Source of the DNA: Candidatus Nanosyncoccus sp.
GTDB lineage: Bacteria > Patescibacteriota > Saccharimonadia > Saccharimonadales > Saccharimonadaceae
Length of the DNA: 64,000 nt
Direction of reading: 5' to 3'
Assembly (NCBI GenBank): GCA_045589895.1
Contig: JAZNPY010000002.1
Span: 34,546-98,545, forward strand
Shown here: piece by piece, positions 1 to 22,377 of the stretch
How positions within the stretch are numbered: the first letter of the stretch is position 1
How the letters are laid out: each line of letters opens with the position of its first letter
The notes under the pieces: model-generated
What the model was told of the DNA's origin: nothing
Databases searched by the model: none
What the model saw: only the letters and a program-made list of their open reading frames with translations
Made by a program: the position numbers and the translations under genes

Positions 1-220
1 CGCGCGCGACGATACTATCGGGATGAGAAGTGCCAACAGTAATCATTTTTCTGACATCATTTAAATTGGCACGAGATATAATATCATCCGGCAAAAAATC
101 GGCTTTTTCATGAGGTATCTCTGGGTGGCGGCGCAGAAGTTTCTTCGAGATTTGCTGGCGATTAATCGCAAAATCGTAAGTTTCGCGATCGTGGATATGA
201 CAATGGGAATCTATTAGCAT
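1..220 (-). CDS. tatD: TatD family metallo-DNase, N-terminal part (runs off window start)
   Basis: Not in ORF track. Manual translation from ATG at 220: MLIDSHCHIHDRETYDF...VRKMITVGTS, with the TatD DxHxH start motif. TGC-TATAAT lies 6 nt upstream. Confidence 0.8.
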   Translation of the reverse strand, partial: MLIDSHCHIHDRETYDFAINRQQISKKLLRRHPEIPHEKADFLPDDIISRANLNDVRKMITVGTSHPDSIVAR

Positions 221-238
221 AGACTAATTATAGCACGA

Positions 239-2044
239 CTACTGGCGAGCTTCACGCTTGCGCTTAATCGGGTCGAGCTGGCGTTTCCTGAGCCTTAGGG
301 ATTTAGGTGTAACTTCGAGAAGTTCATCGTCAAGCAGAAAATCAAGACATTGTTCAAGGCTTAACTGAGTGTATGGGGTGAGCTGGATGGCGCCGTCACT
401 AGCATGAGTGCGCATATTTGTAAGCTGTTTTTCGCGACAGACGTTAATATCGAGATCGTCCTTTTTATTCGATAGACCGACGATCATACCTTGGTAAACT
501 GGAACCTGCGGCGGAATATAAAGCACGCCGCGAGCCTGAGCAGCATCTAGAGCATAGGCAGTCGAAACACCAGTTTCGAAGCTAATCAGAGCGCCGTTTC
601 GTTCGGGCTTATATTTACTATCAGCAGGTCGATAGCCATGAGGGATACTAGACATAATCACAGTACCCTTCGTGGCGGTAAGCAGATTATTGCGCAGACC
701 AATCAGGGCGGCAGTGGTGATTTCATAAGTGAAACGAGTAGTGTTCTGACTGGTTAATTCCTGGGATTTTAGCTCGGCTTTTCTGATACCCATTTCCTGA
801 CTGACGGCACCAACAAATTCGGAGTCGACTTCGATAGTTAAATCCTCGACTGGTTCGAGCTTCTGGCCGTTTTCTTCTTTGTAAACGACTTCTGGACGAC
901 CAGCTTCGAGTTCATAGCCCTCGCGGCGCATAGTTTCAATCAAGACGGAAAGATGAAGCTCGCCACGACCGGAAACTTTGTAGCCGAGACCGTCGGGCTG
1001 GATTTTTAAGGCGATATTCGTCTCGAGTTCTTTTTCTAGGCGCTCAGCAATTTGGCGAGAAGTAGTAAATTCGCCTTCCTTACCCTTGAGCGGGCTAGTG
1101 TTCGGGCCGATGTAAATAGATAAGGTTGGCGGCTCAAGCTCGATGGTTGGAAGAGCGGTCGGGTTTTCGCCGGTCGCAATAGTGTCGCCAATATTAGCGT
1201 CTTGGACACCGGTCAACGCAACAATGTCGCCAGCAATAACCTCGTCGGTTTCCTCTTTGCCAAGACCGCGGTAAGTAAAAATCTTATCAATTTTAGCTTG
1301 TTTGTTGTTTGGCAAAACTTTGACGGTTTCGCCTTTTTTGAGCTTGCCACGTGCGATTTTGCCGATAGCGTATTTGCCAAGATAATTATCAGCGGCAAGA
1401 GCGGCAACGAGAAGCTGGGCGCCCTTCTCGGCGTGTTCGTCGATTTTTGGGGCTGGAATATCGTTAATAATAGATTCAAAAATCACATGAAGGTCGTCAT
1501 CGAGATCTGTAGTTTTACCAGCTTTACCCTCGCGGGCAATAGCGTAATAAATTGGGTAGTTCAGCTGAGACTCGTCGGTTGCAAGTTCCAGGAAAAGACT
1601 TTCGATTTCGGATTTCACTTCTTCGATACGAGCAGCAGGCTTATCAATTTTATTTATTATTACAACAGGTTTTAGCTTCAAGTCAAGGGCTTTGCTCAGA
1701 ACGAACTTAGTCTGAGGCATCGGTCCTTCTTGAGCATCAACAATGAGTAGAACACCGTCAGCCATATTCAAAGTTCGTTCAACTTCGCCGGAAAAATCGG
1801 CGTGACCAGGGGTGTCAATAATATTAATCTTATAGTCGTCATAAAACACAGCGGTTTGCTTCGCGGTAATGGTAATTCCCCGCTCGTGTTCCTGATCCAT
1901 AGAGTCCATAATTAAAGTCTGAGACATTTCCGCTTGATTTTCGCGGAAAGTATGGGATTGCTTCAAAAGACCGTCGACGAGAGTAGTTTTACCGTGGTCG
2001 ACATGAGCAATAATAGCAACGTTTCGGATTCTGTCTTTGTTCAT
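239..2044 (-). CDS. typA: Translational GTPase TypA/BipA
   Basis: RNVAIIAHVDHGKTTLVD, ERGITI, DTPGHADF, NKID, GRGELHL and C-terminal LEQCLDFLLDDELLEVTP motifs; 601 aa. Confidence 0.98.
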   Translation of the reverse strand: MNKDRIRNVAIIAHVDHGKTTLVDGLLKQSHTFRENQAEMSQTLIMDSMDQEHERGITITAKQTAVFYDDYKINIIDTPGHADFSGEVERTLNMADGVLLIVDAQEGPMPQTKFVLSKALDLKLKPVVIINKIDKPAARIEEVKSEIESLFLELATDESQLNYPIYYAIAREGKAGKTTDLDDDLHVIFESIINDIPAPKIDEHAEKGAQLLVAALAADNYLGKYAIGKIARGKLKKGETVKVLPNNKQAKIDKIFTYRGLGKEETDEVIAGDIVALTGVQDANIGDTIATGENPTALPTIELEPPTLSIYIGPNTSPLKGKEGEFTTSRQIAERLEKELETNIALKIQPDGLGYKVSGRGELHLSVLIETMRREGYELEAGRPEVVYKEENGQKLEPVEDLTIEVDSEFVGAVSQEMGIRKAELKSQELTSQNTTRFTYEITTAALIGLRNNLLTATKGTVIMSSIPHGYRPADSKYKPERNGALISFETGVSTAYALDAAQARGVLYIPPQVPVYQGMIVGLSNKKDDLDINVCREKQLTNMRTHASDGAIQLTPYTQLSLEQCLDFLLDDELLEVTPKSLRLRKRQLDPIKRKREARQ

Positions 2045-2093
2045 AACTTAGCCATTATATCACAGATTACATATATAGTCAACAGGGGTGTTA

Positions 2094-2122
2094 TTGACAA
2101 AAAGAGAAATCTGTGGTATAAT
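2094..2122 (+). promoter_or_regulatory. Sigma70-type promoter upstream of tRNA-Lys
   Basis: TTGACA-N17-TATAAT. Confidence 0.75.
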
Positions 2123-2189
2123 TAGAGAATATTGTTTGAAATTAAGGGTTTTCAAAATATCCCCGATGTGTTATACTAGGTTAGACCGT

Positions 2190-2266
2190 GGGTCGGTAGC
2201 TCAGCTGGTTAGAGCACGGGCCTTTTAAGCCCGGTGTCGAGGGTTCGAGCCCCTCCCGACTCACCA
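2190..2266 (+). tRNA. tRNA-Lys(UUU)
   Basis: Cloverleaf: acceptor GGGTCGG/CCGACTC, anticodon arm CGGGC-CTTTTAA-GCCCG, T-loop TTCGAGC, encoded CCA. Confidence 0.97.
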
Positions 2267-2444
2267 TTTTTTGTGCTTTAAAAAAAGCTCGAACCCTCGG
2301 AACGTCCCAAGGGGTAAACGAGGGTTCGAGCCCCTCCCGACTCACCAAGATTTCGAGTAAAAAGAGAGCTTGCTCTCTTTTTTGAGAAATCGCAGGTGAG
2401 AAGAGGATGCGGAGCATCCGACTCACCATTTTTTGTGCTTTAAA
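2256..2444 (+). repeat. 162-bp miniature element with duplicated tRNA-Lys 3' end and internal palindromes
   Basis: 27-bp direct repeat CCGACTCACCATTTTTTGTGCTTTAAA at 2256-2282 and 2418-2444. 29-bp copy of the tRNA T-arm/acceptor (2238-2266) at 2319-2347. Inverted T-arm copy at 2287-2299. Confidence 0.9.
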
Positions 2445-2450
2445 TTTATC

Positions 2451-2479
2451 TGGACAAAAGCGCCCAGATTTGATATAAT
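2451..2479 (+). promoter_or_regulatory. Promoter facing the 3' end of the PemK-like gene
   Basis: TGGACA-N17-TATAAT with extended -10 (TGA-TATAAT); no ORF follows on this strand. Confidence 0.65.
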
Positions 2480-2484
2480 GGAGT

Positions 2485-2534
2485 CATATTCGGGAATACC
2501 CGCACCCTAGTTGAAAGACTAGGGGACATTTTTT
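2485..2534 (+). ncRNA. Candidate small two-hairpin RNA convergent with PemK-like toxin gene
   Basis: Follows the promoter. Hairpins CGGG-AATA-CCCG (2491-2502) and CCCTAGT-TGAAAG-ACTAGGG (2505-2524), then a T-run overlapping the toxin stop codon. Confidence 0.45.
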
Positions 2535-2940
2535 ATCTAGAGTATAGTCTATAGAATCCTTCCCAAATTTTATTAAAGTCTGTGGCCGGTAACTGGCCAA
2601 TACGGCTATATAACCTAGACGTGCTGTAAGTTCTGGCTTGAGAGAGCACAGCGGTCTCTAATCTACCTTGGAATTCAAATGGAACATACCATGATCCATC
2701 ATGGATTTGCGAGGTTAGCGGTACCCCCATAAAACCATATCTGCTTAATTTCTTCAAAACTACTACTGGTCGTGAAAAATACTCGCTTTTACCATTAATC
2801 TCTATGCCTACATTTTCACCAATTGCCACCCACCAAACTTCTCCATTGGCGATTTTTTGTAATTTACTTGAATTATGTTTTTTCTCTTTTATGGGAAACC
2901 AGTCAGATAATAGCTGCTGTTTATTATTTTCTTCGTGCAT
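2533..2940 (-). CDS. PemK/MazF-like toxin family protein, no adjacent antitoxin ORF
   Basis: GEVWWVAIGENVGIEINGK..FSRPVVVLKK..GVPLTS..AVLSQARTYSTSRL. Start moved to ATG 2940, which has SD-like AAGGAC. Confidence 0.8.
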   Translation of the reverse strand: MHEENNKQQLLSDWFPIKEKKHNSSKLQKIANGEVWWVAIGENVGIEINGKSEYFSRPVVVLKKLSRYGFMGVPLTSQIHDGSWYVPFEFQGRLETAVLSQARTYSTSRLYSRIGQLPATDFNKIWEGFYRLYSR

Positions 2941-3025
2941 ATTTTTAGTCCTTTTTAATTTTATACGCACGAGTATATATCAAATTTTGAAAAATTTACA
3001 AGCGCTAGCACCTAGACTTCTGAGT

Positions 3026-3787
3026 CTAAATGCAGGTGTAGCCGCCGTCGACTGGGAGGATTACGCCGGTGACGTAGCTAGCCTCTTTGCTCGCTAGGAA
3101 AACTGCAGCAGCGTCGAGTTCACCTGGCTTACCATAGCGTTCCATCGGGACATGGGTTTTTGCAAATTCTTGGAAACGTGGAGTGTCGAGTACTGGCTTT
3201 GTTAATTCGGTTTCGAAATAGCCTGGGCAAATTGCGTTGCAAGTAATTCCGTCGAGAGCCAATTCGGCGGCAACAGCACGGGTAAAGTTCACAACTCCGC
3301 CTTTCGAGGAATGATAGGCGACGGTATGAATTTCGGTGTTGCCGACTAAGCCGTACATGGAAGCGATATTAATAATGCGGCCATAATGGTTTTTCTGCAT
3401 GATTTTTGCGAACGCACGGGTCATCTTGAATACAGAAGTCATATCGGTGGCGATGGTGAAATCCCACTCATCGTCACTCATCTCAACCACACCTTTATCC
3501 TTCGAGGAACCGGCGCAGTTAAGCAAGATGTCGACGTGGCCAAACTCTTTTTCGGCAGCTTTGGCAGCGGCGTCAATATCCTCGGTCGAGGTCACATCAC
3601 ATTTGAGTGGTAAGACCTTAGTGTTGAATTCTTTTTTTAACTTCTCGGCTAGCTCTTCTAGACGTTCGACACGGCGAGCAAGAATCACAAGGCTGGCGCC
3701 CTGACGGGCAAAAGCGGTAGCCATCTGAACGCCGAGACCGGAACTGGCGCCTGTAACAACTGCAACTTTATCTTTTAAATCAAACAT
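3026..3787 (-). CDS. SDR family NAD(P)-dependent oxidoreductase (gluconate 5-dehydrogenase-like)
   Basis: TGASSGLG, NCAG, YHSSKGG catalytic YxxxK, NAICPG, VDGG. Confidence 0.92.
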   Translation of the reverse strand: MFDLKDKVAVVTGASSGLGVQMATAFARQGASLVILARRVERLEELAEKLKKEFNTKVLPLKCDVTSTEDIDAAAKAAEKEFGHVDILLNCAGSSKDKGVVEMSDDEWDFTIATDMTSVFKMTRAFAKIMQKNHYGRIINIASMYGLVGNTEIHTVAYHSSKGGVVNFTRAVAAELALDGITCNAICPGYFETELTKPVLDTPRFQEFAKTHVPMERYGKPGELDAAAVFLASKEASYVTGVILPVDGGYTCI

Positions 3788-3789
3788 TT

Positions 3790-4365
3790 TTACTCCTTTA
3801 CAATTACTGCTTCTTTAATGCTTTTACTGACTTCGTCGATATTATGCTTAATAATAATCGTATCGATCAGGCTTGAAACTCCATAGATAATCATCAGGAC
3901 TCCAGCGAAAGTAACCATGGCGATTTGGCCTTCCCAAGGATTGAGAATGAGCAAGATGCCGCAGATTAGCGATAGGATAGTGGTGACGATGGCGAAAGTG
4001 CCAGAGCTAGTGCCGCGGAGTGCCGCGGAGAAGCGACCAGAGGCGATTGCGCTCACGATGAACCAACAGCCGATGACGCTCGGGAAAATATTCATGACGG
4101 ACGGGCGGACGGCGAAAAGAAAACCGAGTACGAGCAAGACTACACCGACAAATGACGTGCTGAAGAAAGGCAGGATGCGACGACGGAAGTCAGAAACTAC
4201 GAGATAGGTACCGGACGCGAGACAGAAGATTGCGATAATCCAGCGGATAACATCTAGCGAAGTGTCTGGGGCTAATAGGAAAACGAGGCCCAAAACAACT
4301 AGCAGAAGTGCCGAGATTAAGGCAGTATTAATAAAGCCATTGATTTTCTTTTTCATTTCTTTCAT
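3790..4365 (-). CDS. DUF308/HdeD-like multi-pass membrane protein
   Basis: About six hydrophobic helices in two repeats (LGLVFLLAP / CGILLILNP); SD AGGAG upstream. Confidence 0.75.
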   Translation of the reverse strand: MKEMKKKINGFINTALISALLLVVLGLVFLLAPDTSLDVIRWIIAIFCLASGTYLVVSDFRRRILPFFSTSFVGVVLLVLGFLFAVRPSVMNIFPSVIGCWFIVSAIASGRFSAALRGTSSGTFAIVTTILSLICGILLILNPWEGQIAMVTFAGVLMIIYGVSSLIDTIIIKHNIDEVSKSIKEAVIVKE

Positions 4366-4462
4366 AGTAAAAAACTCCTTATGTTTCCTATTATAGCACT
4401 ACCCTATATAAAAAATAGCCTTTATTTTTGGAAAGATATATGATAGAATGATTTTAGGTCGT

Positions 4463-4539
4463 GGGCGGCTAGCTCAGTTGGCTAGAGCGCGTCTTTGACG
4501 TAGACGAGGTCAGGGGTTCGACTCCCTTGTCGCCCACCA
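4463..4539 (+). tRNA. tRNA-Val(GAC)
   Basis: Acceptor GGGCGGC/GTCGCCC, anticodon arm CGTCT-TTGACGT-AGACG, T-loop TTCGACT, CCA. Confidence 0.96.
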
Positions 4540-4547
4540 TTAACACT

Positions 4548-4570
4548 ATATCCCTTATGGGATATTTTTT
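4548..4570 (+). terminator. Intrinsic terminator after tRNA-Val
   Basis: ATATCCC-TTAT-GGGATAT followed by a T-run. Confidence 0.75.
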
Positions 4571-4589
4571 ATGTACTGAGCGCATCATT

Positions 4590-4620
4590 AAAAAGGCGTC
4601 CCACCTCGCATTGGGACGCC
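4590..4620 (-). terminator. Intrinsic terminator of the surface-protein operon
   Basis: GGCGTCCCA...TGGGACGCC hairpin with a T-run on the minus strand. Confidence 0.75.
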
Positions 4621-4670
4621 CAAAAGTTAGCCAAAAACAAACACTATTTTAAAGAGTAGTACCTCTTGAT

Positions 4671-5657
4671 TTACCTCTTATGACCATTCTTTTGCTTACG
4701 CAAGGCAACGAATGCCAAAACGGTAGCAACGGTGAAGATGATTAGGCCAGAAATCAGATAGTCGAATCTCGACATATTGAGTTCGGCAAGGAAGCCACCC
4801 GTCTTTGGGACGTCTGGCGCCACTTCGTCCTGGTCACCATCGGTATCCGGGATATCCGGCGTGTCTGGCTCGTCAGGCGTATCTGGAGTATCTGGTTCGT
4901 CAGGACCATCTGGGGAAACGTAGTTCGCTTCGCTACTCACTATACCAGTAGCCGAAGTTAGAACTTCGCCGGCAGCATTCTTAGCTATTGCAGCAATAGT
5001 GTATTGACCGCTACTAGCATGATTGTCTCTAAACGGCAACGTGATGGTTTGGGTGCCTATGACTCCTGGGTTAGTAATCTGAACGTTGATCGGGCTAGAG
5101 AATACTGGTCTATTCGAAGAATCGTAAGCTTGAAGGTCGACCGAATTGACGGCGGAAGCATATTCAATTTCTACCGTTGGGTCGCCATTCTCTGCATTGG
5201 CAACCGTATTCATCTTTAACGGTATGTAGTAAAATTCTACGCTTGCATAATCCGAGCCATCGTTCACGGAAGAATCAAAGCGATATCTACCAAAACCTAG
5301 TCCGTTGGCATTGAGGTCGATAGGCAGCGCATGTGTGCCGTTGAGCTCGGCCGGCAGATACTCGCCATTCTTGGACCCACCAGTAGTAGTGTTGGCGATA
5401 GTGTAGGAAATCTTAACAGCCTGCGAATAGAAGAGGCCGATTTCCATATTATTGTTTAAAGTAATTGTTCCGTTGGCTGGACTTGTGATGTCTAGGCTAG
5501 CCACACTATCGAAGACATTCACCCTGAGGTTGACTGCTCCGCTGGTGCTACCAACAGCATCAACGTCCGGCGTAGGAACAGCAAAGGCATAGGCGGTCAT
5601 AGCTCCAACTATAGCTAAGCCACCTATGCCAAGTATACGTTTTTTGCTTTTTTGCAT
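4671..5657 (-). CDS. Secreted beta-rich surface protein with Pro/Asp linker and sortase-like VPKTG anchor
   Basis: N-terminal signal peptide; Ig-like Asn/Thr/Ser-rich body; PDEPDTPDTPDEPDTPDIPD linker; VPKTG, then a hydrophobic helix and RKQKNGHKR tail. Confidence 0.8.
   Translation of the reverse strand: MQKSKKRILGIGGLAIVGAMTAYAFAVPTPDVDAVGSTSGAVNLRVNVFDSVASLDITSPANGTITLNNNMEIGLFYSQAVKISYTIANTTTGGSKNGEYLPAELNGTHALPIDLNANGLGFGRYRFDSSVNDGSDYASVEFYYIPLKMNTVANAENGDPTVEIEYASAVNSVDLQAYDSSNRPVFSSPINVQITNPGVIGTQTITLPFRDNHASSGQYTIAAIAKNAAGEVLTSATGIVSSEANYVSPDGPDEPDTPDTPDEPDTPDIPDTDGDQDEVAPDVPKTGGFLAELNMSRFDYLISGLIIFTVATVLAFVALRKQKNGHKR
4840..4915 (-). repeat. Degenerate 9-bp coding repeats (PD[E/T/I])n
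   Basis: CCAGATGAG/CCAGATACT/CCTGACGA-type units encoding the Pro-Asp linker. Confidence 0.7.
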
Positions 5658-5731
5658 ACTCTACACTCTTTCTTTTTATTTTTAGTTTTTGTTTTGGCTT
5701 CGCAGAGTAGCGTACTCGCAATTTTTCAAAT

Positions 5732-6712
5732 CTAGACGAGGAGTCTGGATTTGCGCTCTCTGCGCTTCCTGATTAGGATTATAACCCAGATGATAATCAA
5801 TGTCAAGAGGATTATGCTTAAAATCATTACAAATACTGGCATAATCACGACAATCTTAGTTCTCTCTTCTACTACGGAGTTATTTAAAGCACTCACTTTG
5901 TAATGGACTTTGTAAAAACCGAGTAGTGGAGTCTCTTCCCACTCGGTAGTAACGCGGCGGGCGGTGTCCGGAAGAATATTGTAGGAACTATTCTTCAAGA
6001 AGAGCTGCTTGCCGAAAAGAGATTGGATATCGAGCTCATAGACAGCTTCGAAATCAGTGTTACCATTGTTCTCTACGCGGGAGCTAGCCGAAATTTTACC
6101 GGAAGTCATAAAGGTTTTGAAGCCGAAATCGGTGATTTTTGCTTCATCGATAGTATCACCATCGGTGTGACCATAGACGATTAAGCCGACGCGAGAGACT
6201 GTCTTAATACCGGAGCCAGAAACTTTACCCTCGACTTCGTCAGATTCAGCAAAGATAGTAGCATACTGACCGCCAGCAGGAATGCTATCCGGAACAGAGA
6301 TGCGATAGCGAACGGTTTGTTTCTCGCCTTTTTTCAGCTTGAAGTGGGCATCGCTAGTTAAAGAGCCATCGTCCTTATAGAACTGGATCCAGCGTGAAAT
6401 TTGGGTACGATTAGTTTCGTTACTAAAGCTAACGTTGTAGTCTTCATCACTGACCGAATATGGGGCAGCGTAGACATGATAGCCAAAGTCTTCGGAGCCG
6501 ATGTTCGAAACAGTGAAACTATAATCGCTATCCTCGCCAGGAATCAAAGTTACCTTATTGGATACCGGAGAAATCTGGAGCCAGATAGCAGGCTTAGAAT
6601 CTTCGGAAGAAGAGTCGTCAGTATCCTCAGCGTGGACAGTCGGGACAGCGGCAACGAGCGAGCTCAGCACTACTGCGGCTGCAGCTAGAATACTTACTAA
6701 ACGTTTACTCAT
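5732..6712 (-). CDS. DUF916/DUF3324-like (WxL-partner, PapD-like Ig) membrane-anchored protein 2
   Basis: Signal peptide; ISPVSNKVTLIPGE..FTVSN, PAGGQYATIFA, RVENNGN; C-terminal TM plus RKRRERK. Start moved to ATG 6712 (SD AGGAGG, overlapping the upstream stop). Confidence 0.75.
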   Translation of the reverse strand: MSKRLVSILAAAAVVLSSLVAAVPTVHAEDTDDSSSEDSKPAIWLQISPVSNKVTLIPGEDSDYSFTVSNIGSEDFGYHVYAAPYSVSDEDYNVSFSNETNRTQISRWIQFYKDDGSLTSDAHFKLKKGEKQTVRYRISVPDSIPAGGQYATIFAESDEVEGKVSGSGIKTVSRVGLIVYGHTDGDTIDEAKITDFGFKTFMTSGKISASSRVENNGNTDFEAVYELDIQSLFGKQLFLKNSSYNILPDTARRVTTEWEETPLLGFYKVHYKVSALNNSVVEERTKIVVIMPVFVMILSIILLTLIIIWVIILIRKRRERKSRLLV

Positions 6713-9716: not shown

Positions 9717-9861
9717 TAGTTTTTTAAGCTTTTTTTAACTTTTTTTACATGTGCGTTTTTCCACAATTTTACCCCTGTTGTTTTGTGTCTTTTGTTGGAA
9801 AAAAATAGTAGCTTCCCTGACGTAGATTTAGCAACAAAAAACGTCCCAAGCGGGACTTTTT

Positions 9862-13458: not shown

Positions 13459-13827
13459 CTATCTACTAGTATAAGGCGTAATCCAAAAATTTACAACCCC
13501 ATTTACGACACTCATGACTAGAGAGCTAAGGATGGCGCCAGCGAAGTTCATACCGACATTAGGGGTCAGCCAGATAGCAAGGGTAACCATGGCGGTATTG
13601 ATAATCAAAGTGAAAAGACCCATGGTAAAAATAATTAGCGGTAGAGTTAATGTAGTGGCGAGTGGACGGACGAAAGAGTTGACCAGGGAGAAGAATAGGC
13701 CGGCGAGAATAAAATCGAGTGGATTAGGCTGACCGGAAACTACGCCAAAAAAAGTAATACTGAGCCACATACCAAGCGTGGATAATGCCCAACGAGCAAC
13801 AAAACTAATCGTCCATTTTTTAAACAT
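13459..13827 (-). CDS. Phage-holin-like (YvlD-type) 4-TM membrane protein
   Basis: LVNSFVRPL..LTLPLIIFTMGLFTLIIN motif. Confidence 0.85.
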   Translation of the reverse strand: MFKKWTISFVARWALSTLGMWLSITFFGVVSGQPNPLDFILAGLFFSLVNSFVRPLATTLTLPLIIFTMGLFTLIINTAMVTLAIWLTPNVGMNFAGAILSSLVMSVVNGVVNFWITPYTSR

Positions 13828-22241: not shown

Positions 22242-22316
22242 TTTGGAGGCGCCGACTAAAAAAGGCGCTGAACAAAGCAAGGAAAGCTTGCTCTCATTTG
22301 CTTTGGAGGCGCCGAC
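22242..22316 (-). repeat. 60-bp unit with duplicated tRNA-Cys 3' end
   Basis: TTTGGAGGCGCCGAC at 22242-22256 and 22302-22316. Confidence 0.85.
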
Positions 22317-22377
22317 CGGAATTGAACCGGTGTACAAGGTTTTGCAGACCTCTGCGTAACCACTCCGCCACAGCGCC
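22304..22377 (-). tRNA. tRNA-Cys(GCA)
   Basis: Reverse complement: acceptor GGCGCTG/CGGCGCC, anticodon loop CTGCAAA, discriminator U, CCA. Confidence 0.96.

Follow-up and report, generated by a model that had tools for sequence, protein, structure and literature searches.

The locus lies near the start of the window, a stretch of 64,000 nucleotides from the genome of a ruminant-gut Candidatus Saccharibacteria (TM7) of the Nanosyncoccus-like group. The TypA protein of the window is ~100% identical to that of a MAG labelled 'uncultured Candidatus Saccharibacteria bacterium'. Exact-protein look-ups for TypA, the SDR protein and the toxin returned no record. For comparison, 80 related loci were fetched. 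The tRNA-Lys(ttt) gene is followed by a region of repeats and by a promoter-like site, beyond which lie a toxin gene without a partner, two further protein-coding genes and tRNA-Val (Table 1). In many relatives (L004, L007, L035, L053, L085 and L093) tRNA-Val stands immediately before tRNA-Lys. The window (2190-4539) and L001 instead have Lys, then ~2.2 kb containing the toxin, SDR and DUF308 genes, then Val; the locus has been rearranged.

Table 1. Features of the tRNA-Lys locus and of the related tRNA-Cys unit. Positions are those of the window; L numbers are loci and contigs used for comparison.
Feature	Positions	Strand	Remarks
TypA gene	239-2044	-	
tRNA-Lys(ttt), CCA encoded	2190-2266	+	ARAGORN; Rfam tRNA, 68.5 bits
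Segment S, copy 1	2238-2266	+	Last 29 nt of tRNA-Lys, position 48 to CCA
Repeat region	2267-2444		
Unit X, 81 bp	2267-2347	+	Strain-variable insertion or deletion; absent from L001 and L084, present in runs X5/X6, variants in runs X4 and X2
T1 trailer, TTTTTTGTGCTTTAAAAAAA	2267-2286	+	First 16 nt identical to trailer A (2429-2444)
X left arm, GCTCGAACCCTCG	2287-2299	+	Reverse complement of tRNA positions 48-60; inverted repeats, 13/13 complementary
X loop, GAACGTCCCAAGGGGTAAA	2300-2318	+	19 nt; family signature
Segment S, copy 2	2319-2347	+	29-nt tRNA 3' part (positions 48-76); first 13 nt are the right arm of the X hairpin
Unit Y, 81 bp	2348-2428	+	In all close relatives examined (L001, L084, L085)
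Palindrome, AAAAAGAGAGC-TT-GCTCTCTTTTTT	2359-2383		Terminator-like, same reading on both strands; in the minimum-energy fold of both strands
Y hairpin	2384-2428	+	GAGAAATC..GGTGAG is an inverted copy of CTCACCAAGATTTC; inner hairpin GGATGC-GGA-GCATCC at 2405-2419
Copy 3 of tRNA end, CCGACTCACCA	2418-2428	+	Within the Y hairpin
Trailer A, TTTTTTGTGCTTTAAA	2429-2444	+	T run directly 3' of the Y hairpin; copy 3 plus this trailer make up the second 27-bp repeat
Strong promoter-like site	2451-2479	+	3' of trailer A
PemK/MazF-like toxin gene, orphan	2533-2970	-	
SDR gene	3026-3787	-	
DUF308 gene	3790-4365	-	
tRNA-Val	4463-4539	+	
tRNA-Cys with a second copy of its last 15 nt (GTCGGCGCCTCCAAA) 60 nt downstream	22242-22377	-	Loop-less unit, built as Y

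Two neighbouring features were observed in passing. The promoter-like site is near consensus (TGGACA-17-TATAAT, with TG) and is paired with a terminator hairpin at 2505-2524 and a T run, the whole spanning 2451-2534. The predicted transcript of ~50 nt would be antisense to the 3' end of the PemK/MazF-like toxin gene, alongside which there is no antitoxin gene. This small promoter-terminator unit is conserved in L001, whose toxin gene carries an internal deletion, and it could be an RNA antitoxin. Further downstream, a gene of the Phage_holin_4_2 family adjoins uvrC (13459-13827, minus strand), and no further phage genes were seen nearby.

All of the repeats and hairpins described in the initial annotation were present in the sequence. 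The 29 bp at the 3' end of the tRNA (2238-2266) are identical to 2319-2347, and the 27-bp direct repeats 2256-2282 and 2418-2444 are identical to each other. For the inverted T-arm copy GCTCGAACCCTCG, complementarity is complete (100%) with 2238-2250 as well as with 2319-2331. The palindrome AAAAAGAGAGC-TT-GCTCTCTTTTT lies at 2359-2382, and the GGATGC-GGA-GCATCC hairpin required only a small correction of its position, to 2405-2419. Two features had been missed, namely that CCGACTCACCA occurs three times, starting at 2256, 2337 and 2418 with a spacing of exactly 81 + 81 bp, and that GGTGAG (2395-2400) pairs with CTCACC (2422-2427) around the small hairpin. Given this regular spacing, the region is best read as two stacked 81-bp units, X and Y, rather than the single 162-bp unit bounded by 27-bp repeats that had been proposed, and it is the 81 bp of X that vary between strains.

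The sequence between the repeats (52 and 70 bp) is non-coding. The absence of a nearby integrase held up in a recombinase-domain test of the flanking ORFs: neither the ORFs of at least 110 aa to ~15 kb downstream nor TypA upstream gave a recombinase domain, the view on the upstream side being partial as the window begins ~2.2 kb before tRNA-Lys. In unit X, the right arm (CGAGGG...) corresponds to tRNA-Lys from position 48 onward, the copy being identical to the gene at 29/29 nt, and the two arms form a perfect stem of 13 bp. The distance from the end of tRNA-Lys to the X loop is 33 nt. The register of X is ambiguous within the 29-bp repeat, and 2238-2318 fits equally well.

In unit Y a spacer and a palindromic terminator come first. 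They are followed by sequence that repeats the spacer and the tRNA end in inverted form, then by a small hairpin and by the 11-nt third copy of the tRNA end. By eye and in folds, the palindrome (2359-2383) and the Y hairpin with its T6 run have terminator-like features; the X hairpin has a T7 run on the minus strand only. A terminator scan called none of the three, their loops lying outside its 3-8 nt range (the palindrome loop is 2 nt). An origin of X and Y as diverged tandem copies of a single unit was considered and rejected, as 25/70 positions are alike outside the core, which is marginally above shuffles.

Strain variation at the tRNA-Lys locus

The initial annotation had called for a comparison of filled and empty sites, and both were found. 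Exactly the 81 bp of X are missing from L001, which is of the same species (TypA DNA 96.3% identical), and from L084, a further strain (88.5%). In both, the tRNA CCA runs directly into unit Y (trailer B). L085, with TypA DNA at 78%, is also without X. Public sequencing runs gave a similar picture: X-specific sequence was found in runs X5/X6, X4 and X2, and run X1 contains the locus (0.57 of sampled words) without it. In run X5, an independent public run listed again as X6, a 97-nt unitig covers 2252-2347 with 0 mismatches and one extra A, and a 147-nt unitig covers 2319-2462, thereby spanning the X-Y junction. Run X4 carries a diverged X variant over 2243-2327.

These unitigs also bear on whether the region was correctly assembled, which the initial annotation had wished to see checked. 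Repeats of 27-29 bp are near assembler k-mer sizes and might suggest an artefact, through collapse or expansion of tRNA-derived repeats; however, since unitigs from an independent run give both X junctions and the X-Y junction exactly, and the same build is seen in many assemblies from different groups, such an explanation can be given next to no weight. Of the observations that bear on mobility, the comparisons gave this presence and absence between strains and differences in copy number between contigs.

On these comparisons, X is strain-specific, and Y is old and common to relatives. The Y hairpin matches between the window and L085 at 43/45 nt (96%), against 78% for TypA DNA. In L001, 5/15 hairpin positions differ from the window, the changes partly compensating, and CCA has become CTA. 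The Y-like unit of L085 has a 50-bp block (tRNA end, spacer and terminator) directly repeated around an inverted copy and the small hairpin. The initial annotation had proposed searching the genome for the internal palindrome. The palindrome is not a signature of the family, since it belongs to unit Y and occurs only at the tRNA-Lys locus in close relatives; a metagenome scan with a 27-nt piece of it gave no match. The Y hairpin was also rejected as a second widespread family, being found only at this locus in close relatives. Unit Y is best described as an older, locus-specific unit with the same build as X and a different loop, and it now looks like a terminator pair insulating the tRNA gene from the promoter at 2451-2479. 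In L093 (reverse complement, 5839-6030), a decayed tRNA-Lys end, GCCCCTCCCGACTCGCTA, with a hairpin 5' of it lies ~160 nt behind tRNA-Lys, which suggests that a displaced tRNA-Lys end at this locus is old and common across the clade.

A family of loop-bearing units behind tRNA genes

Metagenomic contigs were scanned for exact copies of the loop, GARCGTCCCAAGGGGYAAA, which were found on at least 120 contigs. The same scan of viral contigs gave no match. The window and the fetched loci together contain at least 138 exact instances, the requirement for an exact loop inflating its apparent conservation. Among the matches listed, 101 instances had enough upstream sequence to be evaluated and 96 of these lie no more than 400 nt downstream of a tRNA gene on the same strand. 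Units with the loop follow genes for tRNA-Leu, Pro, Met, Thr, Asp, Trp, Phe, Val, His and Lys, covering at least 14 anticodon species. Homology to genes of the window, at 64-75% DNA identity, was seen for at least 34 metagenome loci, and the family therefore spans Saccharibacteria well beyond the species of the window.

The units share a common order: first a trailer piece, then a short inverted repeat of sequence from the beginning, or close to the beginning, of the tRNA fragment that comes next, then the loop, and lastly segment S to the CCA. In 88/96 cases (matches listed) the bases 3' of the loop match the adjacent tRNA's own 3' part, the copy starting at the T-arm in 56 of them and at the acceptor 3' strand in 32. 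The left arm is the reverse complement of the right arm, for which at least 30 different 8-mers were seen. Among the matches listed, the right arm begins with CG or CA nearly always, and of 73 distinct hairpins 62-72 are paired at each of stem positions 1-6. The dependence of the arms on the local tRNA is illustrated by L093 and L006, where the trailer behind tRNA-Val leads into an inverted local T-arm and the loop GAGCGTCCCAAGGGGCAAA, after which 29 nt of the tRNA-Val end are repeated. The two loops are identical (19/19) and the trailers unalignable, and the left arm follows the T-loop difference between the two loci (TCGAA versus TTGAA). There are two main loop haplotypes, GAG..C and GAA..T, with counts of 66, 66, 1 and 1 among the matches listed. 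This pattern hints at a base pair between loop positions in a single-stranded form, either RNA or ssDNA.

Unit X carries all of the features that define the family, namely the exact loop (its version, GAACGTCCCAAGGGGTAAA, is one of the two main haplotypes), matched arms with a tRNA copy, and a tRNA gene on the same strand within 400 nt upstream. Its membership, as judged from sequence, is almost certain, and half of the repeat region can in this sense be assigned to a large family of tiny non-coding tRNA-end hairpin units. The initial suggestion of a mini-element targeting tRNA ends gains strong support from the recurrence of the X loop behind many other tRNA genes, with the difference that the element is the 81-bp X and not the 162-bp unit. 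Sizes range from 48 to 112 bp in >100 units, none of which contains a gene remnant, and the direct repeats vary from 7 to 90 bp. Two or more units are present in 14/123 loci (matches listed), with a 72-bp period behind tRNA-Leu. The family is apparently undescribed, being matched neither in Rfam nor in the searched literature. Against Rfam, only tRNAs matched window 1-6000 at E <=1, and the same was true of six related loci at gathering score. Phage records gave only weak tRNA-like matches (E ~0.2), and a literature search for the motif and for Saccharibacteria tRNA repeats found nothing relevant except a paper on REP repeats (PMC3733652).

The distribution of the units was assessed in an unbiased set comprising the window and 93 loci (856 kb, 57 tRNA genes). 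A copy of the tRNA's own end lies downstream of 8/57 genes and the loop is found at only 3/57, giving a loop copy number of 1 in the 64 kb window and 3 in the 856 kb. No loop copy with 1-4 mismatches was found next to a tRNA in this set. Distal tRNA-end copies are often without CCA, ending in CGACA, CTACA or CACTA, which argues against a need for the CCA end, and some arms are broken. In L085 only AAGGGGAAAC, a decayed loop, and a decayed tRNA-Val end are left where L093 and L006 have intact units. Patchiness and decay of this kind have the appearance of sequence that was gained, was unneeded and is now eroding.

Units with the same direct-inverted-direct layout, no loop and unrelated fillers are found behind tRNA-Val in L002, tRNA-Glu in L044, tRNA-Cys in the window and tRNA-Lys (Y, in the window and L085). 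Between the two copies of the tRNA-Cys end there are a terminator-like hairpin and a GCGCC...GGCGC hairpin. Units behind tRNA-Leu have kept an internal terminator stem, the loop of which varies.

Sequences akin to the loop core were also observed in other settings. The terminator behind tRNA-Leu(gag) in the window (9836-9861) is AAAAAGTCCCGCTTGGGACGTTTTTT, which on the opposite strand reads CGTCCCAAGCGGGAC, 1 base from the X loop core CGTCCCAAGGGG. GCGTCCCAAGGGGC, a core also present in the X loop, recurs in G+C-rich palindromic insertions of ~90-250 bp (L003 ~6257, L006 ~3755, L035 ~8436). In L051 (5950) and L066 (6179), insertions with this core lie, apparently in frame, at the TatD N-terminus just after the TypA stop codon, and recall the Rickettsia palindromic elements.

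Origin of the units

Unit X is read here as a duplicative, probably selfish insertion, rather than as a host element or a scar, with a probability of roughly one half. The family as a whole is non-coding and probably represents non-autonomous, selfish duplicative insertions, for which we infer both the selfishness and the direction of the event. A new unit would arise at a CG or CA dinucleotide, where either the T-arm (position 48) or the acceptor 3' strand has its 5' edge. The most likely route is a template switch, made by a polymerase or reverse transcriptase where the DNA is nicked or broken. From a 3' end at the T-arm edge, synthesis would proceed over the loop, copied from an existing unit, with the CG or CA flanking the loop as possible switch points. 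The new 3' end would then snap back and copy 5-13 nt of its own strand, producing the left arm, before returning by microhomology to the original template tens of bases downstream, by which S and the trailer would be duplicated. The working tRNA would retain an intact 3' end, with the older copy displaced downstream and left to decay there. Units could spread between strains by ordinary homologous recombination, and recombination between direct repeats could enlarge arrays or remove units.

The junction in L093 is informative in this respect. It contains a 58-bp direct repeat (the tRNA part and 29 nt of trailer) in which the sole new sequence is CCCCTG and the loop, and the native trailer ends TCGAA, completing the left arm TCGAACCCCTG. 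This junction, and the identity of window T1 with the first 16 nt of trailer A, fit a snap-back followed by a microhomology return. However, many units among the matches listed have a direct repeat with CCA as its exact end and a T1 unlike the native trailer. This is not what a simple local duplication would give, so that either later exchange between strains or another route is needed, and the snap-back route is held with less confidence still than the insertion itself. The order of events for X and Y in the window requires at least two steps under any model. More tentatively, and with the odds somewhat against it, the 19-nt core may be a new kind of mobile or self-copying DNA that reaches the 3' part of many different tRNA genes, with a stem built each time as a copy of the target's opposite strand, a tRNA end restored by duplication and no gene of its own, served by a host or trans-acting polymerase, reverse transcriptase or HUH-type nuclease.

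Three further candidates were tried and rejected. Reverse transcription of mature tRNA halting at modified U47 does not fit copies that start at 48, 51 and ~66, nearly always at CG or CA, nor direct repeats that in several cases extend into the trailer. The loop is not a kink-turn or hammerhead, as the order of conserved bases is unfit and Rfam gave no match. A leader or riboswitch for a downstream gene was dismissed as the AGGAGG after the copy in L171 sits in an A+T hairpin and no ORF follows.

Of the alternatives to an insertion, selection for a host function survives best, though we regard it as unlikely. The hairpin would then act as RNA or ssDNA, either as a back-up or bidirectional terminator insulating tRNA genes or as a protein-binding site, with gene conversion holding the tRNA copy to the sequence of the gene. 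Identity of the loop across genera in which flanking genes are only 64-75% identical is what such a function would lead one to expect, as are the covariation of loop positions 3 and 16 and the tracking of the local tRNA by the arms of L006 and L093. The hairpins are also suitably placed: on the minus strand, that of X is followed by T7, faces the toxin gene and could shield the tRNA from antisense read-through, and that of Y, which is followed by T6 just 5' of the promoter, is better conserved in L085 (96%) than is TypA DNA (78%). The terminator stem inside tRNA-Leu units is kept despite a variable loop. Moreover, one metatranscriptome contig spans a tRNA-Leu unit, but at depth 3 and with possible DNA carry-over this single contig is too weak to use. 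A host function sits poorly with the patchy distribution (loop at 3/57 tRNA genes in the unbiased set, absence from strains of the same species), and with arms, CCA ends and loops that decay in place. In addition, the copy starts at varying tRNA positions, such that there is no single common RNA fold, and many units already sit behind a terminator.

Passive scarring offers another explanation, and one that seems improbable for the family as a whole. Here replication slippage, or the repair of breaks, would leave templated-insertion scars at tRNA genes because these are strongly structured and highly transcribed; the scars would not propagate themselves, and the shared loop would be one recurrent filler. 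Such scars may account for the loop-less units, which have the same layout and unrelated fillers, and the microhomology at the L093 junction is in keeping with them; they would not account for reuse of the loop. An identical 19-nt filler at a minimum of 14 tRNA species and on at least 120 contigs is beyond random template choice, and among the matches listed no conserved gene carries the loop, so that the only visible source of a loop is another unit.

The initial annotation had also raised the possibility of an island scar. In this case islands or prophages carrying an integrase would have entered the tRNA 3' end and then lost nearly all of their DNA, with the repeats as their remaining attL/attR sites. 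Such integration produces a second copy of the tRNA 3' end, as in the 29-bp and 27-bp repeats, restores a working tRNA and displaces the old end downstream at a strain-variable site; at T-loop att sites the repeat starts at the T-arm, as it does in these units. Viral contigs with an integrase at such a fragment exist: in the IMG/VR contigs L081 (2476-3572) and L083 a tyrosine integrase adjoins a tRNA-Lys(ttt) 3' fragment, anticodon arm to CCA, whose last 25 nt are identical to window 2242-2266, and which by its sequence appears to be a genuine attP for tRNA-Lys(ttt) in some host. An island at tRNA-Leu(gag) exists too, in L135 (334-3470) and L172, where 3.2 kb separate the gene from a displaced tRNA 3' fragment. 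However, the genuine L135 island looks quite different from the units and lies upstream of a pre-existing one. Of the features of an island or prophage, the units show the tRNA 3' direct repeat and neither an integrase nor element genes or their remnants, although >100 units of 48-112 bp were available in which to see them. The units also form tandem arrays with a 72-bp period and carry the target in inverted copy. A conserved loop whose arms match the local tRNA is not a known att feature, and the loop occurs in no viral contig of the collection scanned. Scars of this kind are therefore very improbable as the source of the family.

The L135/L172 island carries the gene for a large serine recombinase. 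The C-terminal ~50 residues of this protein match ribosomal protein S13 and may be a captured piece of a former target gene. This recombinase was rejected as the enzyme that mobilises the units, having no homologue in the window and only a partial match of 26% identity in L013.

Comparison with known systems

The nearest tested analogue for copies of tRNA ends in a trailer is the E. coli tyrT/tyrV trailer (rttR/tpr), which contains 178-bp repeats each ending with the last 19 nt of tRNA-Tyr. In a check of this locus, the tRNA-Tyr 19-mer recurred three times with 178-bp spacing. As in the units described here, exact copies of the tRNA 3' end including CCA stand in tandem in the trailer of the same operon. 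In contrast to the units, tyrT/tyrV is a single locus in one lineage, without a shared-loop hairpin or an inverted tRNA copy, and does not extend to many tRNAs.

REP-type repeats, with which the Rickettsia palindromic elements are grouped here, are small, non-coding, hairpin-forming and probably selfish, some of them lying inside larger local palindromes (PMC3733652). A class tagged with CGTC has no dedicated transposase and has a CCA tail; the tag is followed by its own stem of 8-9 bp with a loop of 4-5 nt, and there are many scattered copies (PMC3733652). The units share with REPs the idea of a small selfish hairpin, and the X loop also contains CGTC (2303-2306), but it is followed only by a CCC/GGG mini-stem, and the unit does not belong to the REP/CGTC class. 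Moreover, the stem of the units is made of local tRNA sequence, their copies are found almost only behind tRNA genes and their copy number is low. The units also differ from MITEs, in that the arms differ with the local tRNA and the direct repeats, at 7 to 90 bp, are not a target duplication of fixed length.

Folded single-strand sites are found in integron attC and in the CTX phage attP, which have conserved arms and variable loops and need a tyrosine recombinase. By analogy, the units resemble these sites in that one hairpin arm is target-like and would stand beside the target junction after insertion. However, their loop is conserved and their arms are variable, and no recombinase was identified in the ORFs tested. 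Snap-back templated insertions, of the type produced in alternative end joining by polymerase theta, are described in eukaryotes and have idiosyncratic fillers. The units are suggestive of these in their mixture of direct and inverted flank copies and in microhomology at the switch points; unlike them, they reuse one 19-nt filler at many sites, and a polymerase of the theta type was not identified in these genomes.

In practical terms, the loop is a sharp strain-typing marker, and the units are a warning for island-finding software, which takes tRNA fragments as att sites. In Saccharibacteria, whose genomes are tiny and streamlined and in which few mobile elements are known, one would not expect non-coding DNA to remodel the sequence 3' of single-copy tRNA genes time and again, as these units do. 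If the units serve the host, they would constitute a new conserved tRNA-operon element in a phylum in which RNA processing is poorly known. If instead they copy themselves, a stem rebuilt from each target would represent a new route to target-matched insertion.
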